Source: Candidatus Nomurabacteria bacterium (GTDB taxonomy: Bacteria > Patescibacteriota > Minisyncoccia > Phycocordibacterales > UBA9973). Taken from it: 64,000 nucleotides of DNA. The notes below the pieces were generated by a model, which did not search any database, was not told the DNA's origin, and saw only the letters and a list, made by a program, of their open reading frames with translations. Where the stretch lies: contig JAIOPO010000001.1 in NCBI GenBank assembly GCA_021413905.1, forward strand, positions 9,159 to 73,158. The letters are read 5' to 3'. The first letter of the stretch is position 1, and each line of letters begins with the position of its first letter. Positions 5,932 through 58,144 of the stretch are shown in pieces. A program made the position numbers and the translations under genes.

Positions 5932-7512
<1,581 letters not shown>

Positions 7513-10351: not shown

Positions 10352-10421
10352 GGGGAAGCTTGCCCTGTAGTGAGCTTTGCTCTACTGCGGGGTATTTGAA
10401 AAAAGTACTTAGAAAATAAAT

Positions 10422-11744
10422 ATGAAAAATTTAGATTTAAAAAAAAATAAAATTCCAGACAAATCAGGGGTTTATTTTTTTATGGGAGGTAAAAAAATCC
10501 TTTATATTGGCAAAGCCACATCTCTAAAAGACAGAGTAAAAAGCTACTTCCCCTCGACTACGCTCGGGGCAGGTCGGCTTTTGGATTCTCGCGGACCGTT
10601 GATTACAGATATGGTTACAAAAGCTACAAATATTAAATGGCAGGAAACTGACTCGGTTTTAGAAGCACTTATTTTAGAAACGAATTTGATAAAAAAACAT
10701 CAGCCATATTACAATACAAAAGAAAAAGATGATAAAAGTTTTAATTATGTTTGCATAACGAAAGAGGAGTTGCCCAAGGTTTTGATTGTCAGAGGTAGAG
10801 ATTTACAAAAGAAAAAGAAGAATTCTCCCGCCTTCGCCCTCGGAGACATAGGACAGGGAACCCACGGCTCCTTGAATTCTTCTGTTTCTTTTTCCAGTGT
10901 GTTCGGTCCTTTTCCAAACGGCGGGCAATTGAAAGAAGCTTTGAAAATAATTCGTAGAATATTTCCTTTCTTAGACGAAAAAAGTAAAAATCATTATGAA
11001 TTTTACAAGCAAATAAATCTAGTTCCAGAAAAAAAAGATTTGTTATTAAAAAATATTAAAAATATAAAACTCTTTTTCGAGGGTAAGAAAAAATCTATTT
11101 TAAAAAATCTTGAAAAAGAAATGAATGTGTATGCAAAAAATCACGAATTTGAAAAAGCAGGTGAAATAAAAAGACAGATTTTTGCATTGAAGCATATTAA
11201 TGACATATCCCTTATCAAGAACTTACCAGAGAAGAATTTTCCTGCCTTCGCCCTCGGAGACATAGGACAGGGAACCCACGGCTCCTTAAATTCTTCTCTG
11301 TTTAATTCTTTCCGCATAGAAGCATATGATATAGCTCATATGTCTGGCAAAAATATGGTGGGTGTGATGGTGGTATTGGAAAATGGTGAAGTGAATAAAA
11401 ATCAATACAGAAAATTTTTAATAAAAAATTACACAAGTTCAAATGATACTGGTGCATTGAGTGAAGTTTTGTCTCGTCGTTTGAAACATGCAGAATGGCA
11501 GTATCCAGATTTGATTGTGGTGGATGGTGGAACAGCTCAAAGGAATGTCGCACTTAAAATATTGAAAGAATTTAATTTAAAAATACCCGTGTCGGCAGTG
11601 GTAAAAGACGAAAAACATAAAGCGAAAATGATATTGTCCGCCGATTCTAAATTTAAAAAAGCAATTTTATTGGCAAATTCTGAGGCACATAGATTTGCTA
11701 TAAAATATCATAAAATTAAAAGAAATAAAGCTTTTTTGGGTTAA
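10422..11744 (+). CDS. uvrC: excinuclease ABC subunit C (short form; GIY-YIG and endonuclease domains, no C-terminal (HhH)2)
   Basis: GIY-YIG (GVYFF...ILYIGKA) and RIEAYDIAHMSG ... LIVVDGG ... EAHRFAI motifs. Confidence 0.85.
   Translation: MKNLDLKKNKIPDKSGVYFFMGGKKILYIGKATSLKDRVKSYFPSTTLGAGRLLDSRGPLITDMVTKATNIKWQETDSVLEALILETNLIKKHQPYYNTKEKDDKSFNYVCITKEELPKVLIVRGRDLQKKKKNSPAFALGDIGQGTHGSLNSSVSFSSVFGPFPNGGQLKEALKIIRRIFPFLDEKSKNHYEFYKQINLVPEKKDLLLKNIKNIKLFFEGKKKSILKNLEKEMNVYAKNHEFEKAGEIKRQIFALKHINDISLIKNLPEKNFPAFALGDIGQGTHGSLNSSLFNSFRIEAYDIAHMSGKNMVGVMVVLENGEVNKNQYRKFLIKNYTSSNDTGALSEVLSRRLKHAEWQYPDLIVVDGGTAQRNVALKILKEFNLKIPVSAVVKDEKHKAKMILSADSKFKKAILLANSEAHRFAIKYHKIKRNKAFLG
10816..10883. mobile_element. 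68-bp GC-rich MITE-like insertion with 9-bp terminal inverted repeats (agaagaatt / aattcttct), in frame inside uvrC (copy 1)
   Basis: Near-identical to copy 2 (3 mismatches). It encodes PAFALGDIGQGTHGSLNSS. GC content is far above the surrounding sequence. Confidence 0.6.
11231..11298. mobile_element. 68-bp GC-rich MITE-like insertion with 9-bp terminal inverted repeats, in frame inside uvrC (copy 2)
   Basis: Same element 415 bp downstream, same frame, same encoded peptide. Confidence 0.6.
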
Positions 11745-21962: not shown

Positions 21963-21978
21963 AAATTGATTAAAATAC

Positions 21979-22023
21979 AAAATGCCCCGCGACCATATGG
22001 TCGCGGGGCATTTTGTATTTTTT
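21979..22023. terminator. bidirectional terminator formed by a 36-bp perfect GC-rich palindrome between convergent genes
   Basis: aaaatgccccgcgaccatatggtcgcggggcatttt followed by a T-run. Confidence 0.7.
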
Positions 22024-37476: not shown

Positions 37477-38664
37477 ATGAAGAAATCAAAGAAAAAAATA
37501 AATAACATAAAATTTAAAAAGAAAAACATCTATATAGATTTCTCGGCTTCCTTTTTACCAAATCCGAGTTCTATTCATGATTTAGGTGTTAAGGCTAGAA
37601 AAGATTTGGAAAATGCCAGAAAAGAAATATCTTTGGAATTATTTGCTCGTCCAAATGAAATTATTTTTACTAGTGGGGGAACAGAAAGTAATAATTTAGC
37701 TATATTGGGAGTAGTTACATATGTCAGACATAGGGAAATCCCTATGTCTGACATATGTTCTGTCGTAGTTCCTCACATTGTAACCACAAACATAGAACAT
37801 CCTTCTGTTTTGGAAGTTTATAAATATTTGGAAAAAACAAAACAAGCAGAGGTGACTTATATCAACGTAGAATCAAATGGCATAGTTGACCCAAAGAAAA
37901 TAAAAAAATCAATAAAAGAAAATACTGTTTTGGTTTCTGTTATGTACGCTAATAATGAAATAGGGACTATTCAACCGATCAAAGAGATTGCAAAAGAAAT
38001 TAGACATTTTAGAAAAAATAGTAAAAGTGTTTTTCCGTTTTTCCATACTGATGCAGTGCAAGCGGTAAATTATTTGGATTTAAATGTTGAAAAATTAGGA
38101 GTAGATTTGATGACATTGACGGGTTCAAAAATAGAAAATTCAGGGAAAGTCGGTATTTTGTATAAAAAAAACAATGTCATATTGTCTCCAATAATGCATG
38201 GTGGAGATCAAGAATTCGGACTTCGTCCAGGAACAGAAAATCTTATTGCTATTTTAGATTTTACAAAAGCTTTTAAGAATGTTCGCAAAATAAAAGAAAA
38301 AGAATCTGTCCGACTTTCAAAATTGCGTGATTATTTTTTTGACAAAATTAAAAAAATGGACGAAAAAATAATCTTAAATGGAGATTTAAAAAACAGATTG
38401 CCGAATAATGTAAATATAACAATACCAAAAGTGCCGAGCGATTTGCTTGTGCTTGAATTATCTGCTCGTGGAATATATATATCTGAAAAAAGTGCTTGTA
38501 AGTCTGGTGACATAAAGTCTTCTCATGTAATACGCGCAATTTGTAAAAAAGATTCGCAATCTTTGCGTTTCTCTATGGGTAGAATAACAAATAAAAATGA
38601 TATTGATTATACTCTGAAATCTTTATCTCAAATTTTGACCAAATTAAAAAAGTGGTATAATTAA
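37477..38664 (+). CDS. cysteine desulfurase / class V aminotransferase (IscS/NifS-like) carrying an in-frame 42-bp palindromic insert
   Basis: IIFTSGGTESNNLAILG...NIEHPSVL...VSVMYANNEIGTIQPI...HTDAVQA. Confidence 0.8.
   Translation: MKKSKKKINNIKFKKKNIYIDFSASFLPNPSSIHDLGVKARKDLENARKEISLELFARPNEIIFTSGGTESNNLAILGVVTYVRHREIPMSDICSVVVPHIVTTNIEHPSVLEVYKYLEKTKQAEVTYINVESNGIVDPKKIKKSIKENTVLVSVMYANNEIGTIQPIKEIAKEIRHFRKNSKSVFPFFHTDAVQAVNYLDLNVEKLGVDLMTLTGSKIENSGKVGILYKKNNVILSPIMHGGDQEFGLRPGTENLIAILDFTKAFKNVRKIKEKESVRLSKLRDYFFDKIKKMDEKIILNGDLKNRLPNNVNITIPKVPSDLLVLELSARGIYISEKSACKSGDIKSSHVIRAICKKDSQSLRFSMGRITNKNDIDYTLKSLSQILTKLKKWYN
37716..37757. repeat. 42-bp perfect palindrome (REP-like doublet), in frame inside the IscS-like CDS
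   Basis: acatatgtcagacataggga-aa-tccctatgtctgacatatgt. The arms contain the same catatgtc.gacata core as the REP elements. Confidence 0.75.
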
Positions 38665-47675: not shown

Positions 47676-47975
47676 ATAATATAATCTGGGTAACTTACAT
47701 TAGATGTGCATCTAATTGAAACACTAACGATGTATATGTGAACATTGCACTGGCACATTTTACCATTTTATTGTAGACTTAAAAAGTCAATTAAATATGG
47801 ACCTAACCCTTGAATTAACATTTAAGGCACGGTCAACAGTAATCCGCTCAGGAGCATAAAACCCATCATTGGGGTACCTGAGCGGTCGTATTGGGAAACT
47901 GATACGGATGGCGAAAGCTATCACCTAGTGGTGGGCTTTTTGCTACCAATTTTATTAGATTAAGATAAAAAATTT

Positions 47976-57369: not shown

Positions 57370-57406
57370 CCCATATGTCTGACATATGGAAAAACTTTTG
57401 TTTGTA
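57370..57406. repeat. left REP-like double hairpin (catatgtctgacatatg plus aaaaacttttg) flanking the Y1 transposase
   Basis: 37-nt direct repeat of the 58108-58144 copy with 1 mismatch. Confidence 0.75.
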
Positions 57407-57421
57407 TGATATAATACATTT

Positions 57422-58120
57422 ATGTCATATAGAAAAGAGGCGCTTGTGGACGGTGAATATTATCACGTCTACAATCGGGGTAACAGTAAACAAAATATAT
57501 TTTTAGACAAAGCTGATTACGAGCATTTTGTGAAATGTCTTTTTGTGTGTAATACTCATCGTAATTTTAATTTTCGAGATAATATTGTTTCTCCAAATAT
57601 TGATTCTTTTGATTTTGATCGGGGAGAGACTTTGGTATCTATTGGTGCTTGGGTTTTAATGCCAAATCATTTTCATATTTATTTAACAATCAATCCAAAT
57701 CGTTCTCATAAATCTGACAATTGGAAAAAGAATAATATTTCAGAATTCATGCGCAAACTTTCCACCGCATATTCAAAATATTTTAATGCAAAATACAATA
57801 GAACTGGCGGACTTTTTGAAGGTACTTTTAAATCTGTGATGATGTCGCAAGATACTCAGTCAAAATATATTTTTGCTTACATACATTTGAATCCGGTAAA
57901 AATTATTGATCATAATTGGCGGACAAAAGGTATTGATAAAAAGAAAGCTGTGGATTTTTTGAATACTTATAAATGGGGTAGTTATTTGGATTATGCCTCA
58001 GAAGAAGAACGTAAAGAAAGTACTATATTGCAAAAGTCTGATTTTCCAAAGTATTTTCTTGATATTAAAGATTTTAATGATGAAATTTTTGACTGGCTCA
58101 GTTTTCCCCCATATGTCTGA
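57422..58120 (+). CDS. tnpA: IS200/IS605-family Y1 (HUH) transposase, RAYT-like
   Basis: HVYNRG...MPNHFHIYL (HUH motif) and the catalytic-Tyr region YIHLNPVK. The C-terminal codons and stop lie inside the right hairpin. Confidence 0.75.
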   Translation: MSYRKEALVDGEYYHVYNRGNSKQNIFLDKADYEHFVKCLFVCNTHRNFNFRDNIVSPNIDSFDFDRGETLVSIGAWVLMPNHFHIYLTINPNRSHKSDNWKKNNISEFMRKLSTAYSKYFNAKYNRTGGLFEGTFKSVMMSQDTQSKYIFAYIHLNPVKIIDHNWRTKGIDKKKAVDFLNTYKWGSYLDYASEEERKESTILQKSDFPKYFLDIKDFNDEIFDWLSFPPYV

Positions 58121-58144
58121 CATATGGAAAAGCTTTTGTTTGTA
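58108..58144. repeat. right REP-like double hairpin flanking the Y1 transposase
   Basis: cccatatgtctgacatatggaaaagcttttgtttgta. Confidence 0.75.

Follow-up and report, generated by a model that had tools for sequence, protein, structure and literature searches.

Two GC-rich repeats in the uvrC gene

The 64,000-nucleotide stretch of DNA analysed here in full (hereafter the window) comes from a Candidatus Nomurabacteria assembly (GCA_021413905.1, contig JAIOPO010000001.1, positions 9,159 to 73,158) and carries, inside its uvrC gene, two near-identical copies of a short GC-rich, hairpin-forming repeat. The host open reading frame (ORF; 10422–11744, + strand, 440 amino acids (aa)) was taken from the ORF list and encodes a short UvrC of the type found in the candidate phyla radiation (CPR), as judged from Pfam domains (GIY-YIG, UVR and UvrC_RNaseH) and alignment to UvrC domains in the PDB. 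Its product is identical to an NCBI protein of Candidatus Nomurabacteria.

Copy 1 occupies positions 10816–10883 and copy 2 positions 11230–11297 (both + strand), each consisting of a GC-rich centre of 48 nucleotides (nt) between terminal inverted repeats (TIRs) of ~10 nt, and each matching the nhmmer profile of the wider repeat family described below (E = 4e-17 and 7e-18, respectively). The original prediction, made from the sequence alone, had reported two 68-bp copies with three mismatches and perfect 9-bp inverted repeats, in the same uvrC frame, with the same peptide and ~60% GC in an AT-rich gene. Length, mismatch count and the coordinates of copy 1 were confirmed, whereas copy 2 had been placed one position too far downstream (11231–11298). 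The 9-nt inverted repeats, AGAAGAATT/AATTCTTCT, are found in both copies, with stem pairing that in fact reaches past them, and the GC content of the 48-nt centres is 62–65% vs 32.7% for the window.

The copies differ at 10825/11239 (C/T), 10829/11243 (C/T) and 10874/11288 (G/A), the first and third of these differences forming one compensatory stem change (C..G vs T..A). A 44-nt core (10830–10873 and 11244–11287) is identical between them and occurs just twice in the window; as a measure of chance expectation, 100 shuffles gave 0 matches with three mismatches allowed. Nested in it is the conserved family core (10835–10865 in copy 1 and 11249–11279 in copy 2, + strand), which in copy 1 is CGCCCTCGGAG-ACATAGGA-CAGGGAACCCAC, of the subtype with an 8-nt spacer. 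The full hairpins extend beyond the 68-nt unit, with hairpin 1 spanning 10807–10892 (+ strand; arms 10807–10825 / 10874–10892, 19 bp with one mismatch) and hairpin 2 spanning 11217–11310 (+ strand; arms 11217–11239 / 11288–11310, 23 nt and 87% complementary, the inner 13–15 bp perfect). The left distal arm of hairpin 1 overlaps Lys codons that are shared with insert-free orthologs.

The two copies start 414 nt (138 codons) apart and share one frame of the ORF, with the encoded peptide PAFALGDIGQGTHGSLNSS (KNSPAFALGDIGQGTHGSLNSS in copy 1 and KNFPAFALGDIGQGTHGSLNSS in copy 2). Their placement in the protein was also as predicted, insert 1 following the GIY-YIG domain and preceding GPFP and insert 2 lying directly before FRIEAYDIAH. 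A hairpin scan and the nhmmer profile returned these two copies only from the window. A third GC-rich island in uvrC (10549–10600) encodes PSTTLGAGRLLDS where most orthologs have GKDLINT, with similar segments in the homologs P0002 and P0097, and probably represents a further family of small inserts.

UvrC orthologs and predicted effect on the protein

UvrC orthologs (62–75% identity) range from 389 to 503 aa in length and carry variable inserts at ~6 hot sites. Variants of the same peptide were detected at the site of copy 1 (site 1) in P0018, P0019, P0030, P0031, P0037 and P0038, and at the site of copy 2 (site 2) in P0003 and P0114. Site 1 is empty in 12 of 30 aligned orthologs and site 2 in several, a patchiness which indicates lineage-specific rather than ancestral segments, as had been proposed. 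Relative to empty orthologs the net insert at site 1 is ~23 aa. The closest filled/empty pair at site 2, P0003 vs P0028, was compared as protein and shows 83% identity; no UvrC pair closer than ~83% was found among the 120 homologs. Two orthologous site-1 copies compared as DNA (L001 and L002) possess the same core between perfect arms of 19 and 21 bp, the arm sequences themselves being different. At least five more UvrC hot sites carry unrelated short inserts (alignment of P0002–P0101), with positions after GVYFF, after CITK (inserts of a 12-aa PARxxxxGG family) and after KFKIR, and another close to the C-terminus.

In an AlphaFold2 model built with the ortholog alignment, residues 134–153 and 263–295 have a predicted local distance difference test score (pLDDT) below 50 and no secondary structure. 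These residues are exactly the two inserts, between folded domains, UvrC being the sole host modelled. UvrC domains in the PDB align to residues 7–107 (GIY-YIG) and 296–437 (endonuclease domain) and leave both inserts outside, the endonuclease alignment beginning directly after insert 2. As the solved domains exclude the inserts and disorder is predicted for them, the model places them as additions to linkers or loops outside the catalytic domains, in line with the earlier proposal of tolerated loops. The uvrC frame stays open and the protein is presumably functional; the gene would have gained two disordered loops of ~23 aa each, one after GIY-YIG and the other ahead of the RNase H-like endonuclease domain, in the linker.

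A dispersed family of hairpin-forming repeats

We scanned one genome per species with the exact core pattern containing a 9-nt spacer, which samples the main family and not the 8-nt subtype of the window; the exact pattern of the latter was used to scan metagenomes. The 9-nt pattern was detected in at least 120 stretches from ~45 assemblies, almost all of them metagenome-assembled genomes of Nomurabacteria, Paceibacterota or ‘Parcubacteria’ from many projects. The top three assemblies contain at least 11, 9 and 9 copies, and several genomes carry at least 6–11. Groundwater series such as Rifle or Hainich are the source of several hits. The metagenomes yielded 53 stretches with 54 copies of the 8-nt subtype. 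The same nucleotide core is thus found at >170 places, in ~45 independent assemblies and many metagenomes, and within at least 12 genes as well as intergenic spacers, which bears out the suggestion that the uvrC segments belong to a multi-copy dispersed element. Two element-bearing contigs, L053 and L120, are labelled Burkholderiales and Woesearchaeota; these are probably mis-binned Paceibacterota contigs.

The repeat unit (~68 nt) consists of the ~48-nt GC-rich centre and ~10-nt TIRs with the consensus AAGAATTTY / RAAATTCTT, and the complete hairpin measures ~90–100 nt. The family core, CGCCCTCGGAG-N8/9-CAGGGNACCCAC, looks invariant and is closed by a 5-bp inner helix that covaries between copies (GAAAC/GTTTC, GCATC/GATGC, GCGTC/GACGC, GAGTC/GACTC and AAAAC/GTTTT). 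A consensus fold of the inner element by RNAalifold was uninformative, the core being invariant by ascertainment and the type B sequences having been shifted by MAFFT. The closing arms are long (median 22 bp with 1.5 mismatches in 123 copies, vs 8 bp when partners were shuffled between copies). Arm conservation is 0.7–1.5 bit over ~10 nt and then falls to ~0.05 bit, whereas arm complementarity stays at 0.5–0.76 per position out to ~25 nt before reaching a background of ~0.3. Within subfamilies the conserved arm part is 12–16 nt, and the truly copy-specific part of the stem is therefore ~8–15 bp. Folding is asymmetric between strands, with C·A vs G·T mismatch counts of 74:5 (inner helix) and 62:16 (arms), and the complement strand is the better folder in 112 of 117 copies (−37.4 vs −31.2 kcal/mol).

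No Rfam family matched the element at the gathering threshold, and only chance-level matches appeared at E ≤ 10. Self-cleaving ribozymes (hammerhead, twister and similar) were dropped from consideration, as none gave an Rfam match even at E ≤ 10. A full-text literature search of incomplete coverage returned no description of such an element in CPR bacteria.

We consider it probable that the two uvrC segments belong to a family of hairpin-forming DNA repeats that is dispersed, non-autonomous and specific to the Nomurabacteria/Paceibacterota within the CPR. The occurrence of both window copies in one gene, 414 nt apart and with no others in 64 kb, is what an ancestral UvrC segment, a local internal duplication or an assembly artefact would also produce. 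Such an origin has next to no probability: independent projects place the core at >170 loci, other genes and spacers among them, UvrC orthologs are patchy and solved UvrC domains leave the inserts out; moreover, only the 68-nt unit is duplicated, not the sequence between the copies. Recovery of the core from ~45 independent assemblies argues specifically against the assembly artefact that had been named as a possible refutation.

Copies within protein-coding genes

Copies of the 9-nt family inside ORFs are predominantly in the sense orientation (36 sense vs 6 antisense) and are read in any of the three sense frames, with FALGDKRTGDPR, LSLRPRSHKDREPT or LETAPSETKGQGTH as the product. The 8-nt subtype is more restricted, with 42 of its 54 copies located inside ORFs, all 42 in sense and in one frame (encoding FALGDIGQGTH, which is Gly/Ser/Thr/Asp-rich), at no fewer than 12 sites in at least 8 genes; a second frame of the core is also stop-free but is never used. 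Host genes identified by Pfam include MnmA, RsmH, LigA (NAD-dependent DNA ligase), DNA polymerase I, PheRS-beta, a class II aminoacyl-tRNA synthetase (aaRS), a SAM methyltransferase and an FAD-linked oxidase, and also LeuRS and the CCA-adding enzyme, both of which host the 9-nt family. In one locus (L169) mnmA carries two in-frame copies, a direct parallel to the uvrC of the window. A LeuRS homolog in L108 (4922–7855, − strand) has a NUDIX domain (PF00293, aa 420–519) embedded between its editing and catalytic parts.

Coding copies have more open sense frames than non-coding ones (1.47 vs 0.67 per copy), and the TAA-bearing spacer of the intergenic consensus, TCATAAGGA, is replaced in them by ACAAAAGGA or ACAAGAGGA. 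Judging from these frame and stop-codon statistics, coding copies would be read through and translated with their host gene, which agrees with the original view of inserts tolerated, or selected, in frame. The sense bias is not explained by stop codons, antisense frames being just as open. The exclusive FALGDIGQGTH frame of the overwhelmingly coding 8-nt subtype points to filtering at the peptide level.

The same exclusive frame, used in 42 of 42 coding copies despite the open alternative, and the retention of the peptide across at least 8 host genes could also mean that several enzymes have recruited the peptide as a module acting at the protein level, for instance a loop for binding or regulation, and that selection on the peptide maintains the single frame. 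We think this improbable, since the related 9-nt family is read in all three frames to give unrelated peptides and conservation is at the nucleotide level, intergenic copies included. In addition, disorder is predicted for the inserts, the host enzymes are unrelated in function and the insert is missing from many orthologs.

CPR bacteria are known for intervening sequences in their rRNA genes, and the long closing stem of the element brings the ends of the insert together, so that the segments might be removed or skipped during expression (as a mini-intron, as an RNase-processed hairpin followed by religation, or by byp-type translational bypassing) and never appear in the UvrC protein. This is very unlikely: copies inside genes always keep the reading frame and have specifically shed the stop codons seen in the intergenic consensus, both of which would be needless if the segment were removed or bypassed. 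Furthermore, net inserts are whole codons although hairpin lengths are not so constrained, and the intergenic copies are not split genes.

Intergenic copies and shared hot sites

The element is an intergenic hairpin located after stop codons as much as it is a coding insert. Of 68 intergenic copies, 55 point in the same direction as the upstream gene, and 35 of 65 begin ≤15 nt from its stop codon. Such copies take up the whole spacer between truly separate genes, for example gatC–gatA or a gene and obg, and a split gene or intron was ruled out for them as the flanking ORFs are distinct genes. No T-tract was found downstream of the hairpin in intergenic copies; this, and the presence of copies within gatCA, ruled out a main role as an intrinsic terminator.

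In other species, unrelated GC-rich cores are found between long arms at the same LeuRS loop, gatC–gatA spacer and MnmA loop. Other GC-rich core families between long A/T-rich arms were noted at hot sites shared with the studied family in L089 and L072 (gatC–gatA spacer), L083, L069, L124, L035, L103, L084, L154 and L163, sometimes in tandem with that family and in either orientation, as in AAGGGGTTTGGCGAGCGRCGGCGAGC...CCGTACCGGC. A 20-nt GC palindrome, CCTGCCTACCGRCAGGCAGG, is nested in the element exactly at the junction CCTT/CGCC in L031 (~5980–6000) and in L089 (gatC–gatA spacer), and a truncated copy in L009 (gatC–gatA spacer) stops at the same point, which may be a site of cleavage or recombination.

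Vertical inheritance and possible constraint

Several observations weigh against a family that is simply mobile and selfish. Core conservation is partly an ascertainment effect of searching with an exact pattern, and the 64-kb window holds two copies, both in one gene. Many of the coding copies have orthologs in other species, with an inner-helix type that is retained at each site; orthologous coding copies are largely inherited vertically, much of the distribution is vertical, and true independent insertions are fewer than the copy counts suggest. Arms change by compensatory substitutions between orthologs (e.g. L055 vs L103), and certain sites were filled in every case, whichever the core family (gatC–gatA spacer, 7 of 7; LeuRS loop, 9 of 9). 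Strong core conservation, compensatory arms and always-occupied sites together suggest a constraint beyond pure selfishness. The usual traces of transposition were also missing: direct repeats of 2–5 nt at hairpin boundaries are no commoner than in partner-shuffled controls (165 non-redundant copies), hence no direct target-site duplication (TSD), and the flanks outside the TIR are inverted rather than direct. Neither a transposase or autonomous parent nor solo halves flanking an ORF were found in the 1.38 Mb sampled around complete copies, no genome-wide protein search having been made.

The inner-helix type CTCCCGCC..GGCTCC, for example, is shared by gene E of three species and the uvrC of the window. 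Concerted evolution, in the sense of core homogenisation within genomes, is unsupported for coding copies, as these keep their site-specific inner-helix types across species.

The constraint could mean that the element is primarily a functional structured nucleic-acid motif under selection, either an mRNA hairpin acting in 3′-end formation, processing or stability or a single-stranded DNA site of replication or recombination, with the coding copies secondary and a mobile origin still compatible. The orientation of intergenic copies and their position just past stop codons fit this explanation, as do the always-filled sites, the covarying inner helix, the compensating arms and the strong strand asymmetry of folding. 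However, the strand that folds better runs antisense to the genes, which leaves the worse folder as the transcribed strand, and a terminator role is unlikely given the absence of a U-tract after the hairpin and the copies within the normally co-transcribed gatCA. Copies lie amid at least 12 essential ORFs and in three frames, the distribution is patchy with empty orthologous sites, no Rfam family matches and unrelated cores replace each other at the same sites. We therefore regard a primarily functional motif as rather unlikely, though it deserves serious consideration, and keep to a dispersed, non-autonomous repeat family.

Inserts, palindromes and proposed mobility

Empty orthologous sites were detected (L022, L073, L165 and L100/L017), and in L088 (methyltransferase) and L029 (RsmH) the same site holds the core in inverted orientation. 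Compared with empty orthologs, the net insert is 69–75 nt, equal to the TIR-core-TIR unit, at UvrC site 1 and in MnmA, the class II aaRS and LigA; other sites show larger net inserts (88–96 nt). At UvrC site 1 (KKKK) and MnmA site 1 (QNEN vs QIKN) the upstream distal arm aligns with host codons of empty orthologs, in which nothing corresponds to the downstream distal arm. In these two best-resolved cases this suggests that the copy-specific arms are derived from an inverted duplication of the upstream flank.

Palindromes without a core (arms of 7–11 bp) were significant at 7 of 16 non-filled orthologous sites, in LigA, Pol I, PheRS-beta and the methyltransferase. In the Paceibacterota loci (~1 Mb) and the window taken together, perfect palindromes (arms ≥11 bp, loop ≤10 nt) number 108 vs 11 in a Markov-1 resample, a ~10-fold excess, and 24 of the 108 lie inside long ORFs, including palindromes of 34 and 44 nt (L075 6509–6542 and L034 3150–3193). 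At 37717–37758 of the window itself, a long ORF contains a perfect palindrome whose 20-bp arms flank a 2-nt loop, and two related CCCATATGTCTGACATATGG palindromes lie at 57370–57406 and 58108–58144.

Three models fit these data alike, the closest filled/empty pairs for the comparison showing ~83–86% flank identity at most: insertion at the centres of palindromes, fold-back (template-switch) extension of the hairpin after insertion, and excision leaving palindromic footprints. From the sequence comparisons we infer mobility by a strand-specific, hairpin-dependent and palindrome-linked mechanism. The element would spread, or have spread, at the DNA level and would persist where harm is slight, as in short spacers just past stop codons. 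Inside genes it would be kept only if in frame, stop-free and in a tolerant loop or linker, and would then be transcribed and translated with the host gene.

A more speculative extension, which we put forward tentatively and as a possibility only, treats the family as ‘hairpin-tip’ elements. These would be mobile GC-rich cores of CPR bacteria that move in a strand-specific, hairpin-dependent manner without direct target duplication. They would integrate at the centre of site-specific palindromes or else generate them, insertion duplicating the upstream flank in inverted orientation and excision leaving palindromes that lack a core. A given site could exchange its core for one of a different family, and one lineage would have adapted to translation in a single benign frame within essential enzymes.

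Other features of the window

A LOOT RNA (Rfam RF03000) was detected at 47800–47922 (+ strand) with 79 bits, above the gathering score. The start of the window contains four copies of a ~147-nt periodic repeat (113–755, 60–74% identity), which is probably a repeat protein. Terminator-like structures are present at 21972–22021 (a palindrome with A-tract, GC stem and T-tract, 17-bp arms) and at 10352–10395, where a hairpin lies between uvrA and uvrC.

Comparison with known repeat systems

The original prediction had likened the uvrC segments to MITEs, which are miniature transposable elements with inverted repeats. Like bacterial MITEs (Correia, ERIC, RUP and BOX; reviewed in PMC10969869), the element is small, has no ORF, carries TIRs, forms a stable hairpin and occurs in many copies (at least 170 here), and bacterial MITEs can likewise be intragenic with in-frame fusions (PMC10969869). 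The label of a typical MITE does not hold, however: there is no direct TSD (165 copies), no autonomous partner was seen and no related insertion sequence (IS) or transposase was identified among the loci sampled (1.38 Mb). In addition, the conserved TIR is only ~10 nt long and is followed further out by 8–15 bp of copy-specific complementarity.

Repetitive extragenic palindromic (REP) sequences and REPINs, which are mobilised by RAYT transposases of the IS200/IS605-type Y1 HUH group, are also hairpin repeats without TSD. They are strand-asymmetric, with G·T tolerated on one strand, have an orientation correlated with gene or replication direction and are commonly located just past stop codons. 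REPs are extragenic, however, 20–40 nt long, and have a conserved 5′ tetranucleotide and a conserved stem, whereas the present family combines a conserved tip with a variable stem and is frequently inserted in coding sequence, 30–78% of copies being intragenic.

The GC clusters or double-hairpin elements of fungal mitochondria (yeast GC42, PMC4478555) resemble the family as GC-rich hairpin mobile DNA in a very AT-rich genome, of constrained structure, with copies that merge or nest and a mechanism that is uncertain. GC42 differs in having an AG target-site duplication and in being mostly intergenic (PMC4478555); it also belongs to different organisms and has no copy-specific outer stem. Copy-specific outer stems, the absence of direct duplications, strand-asymmetric folding, shared hot sites and core-less palindromes make the element a poor fit to textbook MITE, REP or IS models, and these misfits make the movement of bacterial palindromic repeats testable on population metagenomes.

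The inserts reach UvrC, LigA, Pol I, several aaRSs and RNA-modification enzymes, and insertions of this kind make CPR proteins longer and more varied in length. Alignments, domain calls by HMM and housekeeping-gene phylogenies can be disturbed by them, and they could also act as lineage markers.

The nearest parallel, already named in the original prediction and upheld here at the level of function, is with the Rickettsia palindromic elements (RPEs; Ogata et al. 2000, 2002), which are described in a review (PMC10969869) as in-frame palindromic repeats in housekeeping genes. RPEs are short palindromic repeats found many times in unrelated housekeeping ORFs, always in frame, and also in intergenic regions, the added peptide seems compatible with the protein fold and the genome is small, AT-rich and host-dependent (PMC10969869). 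The CPR element is likewise an in-frame palindromic repeat in many unrelated genes (at least 12 hosts) of a small, AT-rich, host-dependent genome, in a location compatible with the fold in UvrC, the one host modelled. RPEs belong to Alphaproteobacteria and not to CPR/Patescibacteria, and are ~100–150 bp long, vs ~68 nt for the unit described here; with phylum, length and composition all different, sequence homology between the two is not expected. The CPR element is further distinguished by a GC-rich core within an AT-rich stem, an outer stem specific to each copy, a strong sense bias and one subtype confined to a single frame. By analogy of function and not by sequence homology, we regard it as an RPE-like, in-frame selfish repeat that would have arisen independently in CPR bacteria, and the apparent abundance of this independent case suggests that such repeats are a recurrent outcome in small, AT-rich, repair-poor genomes.

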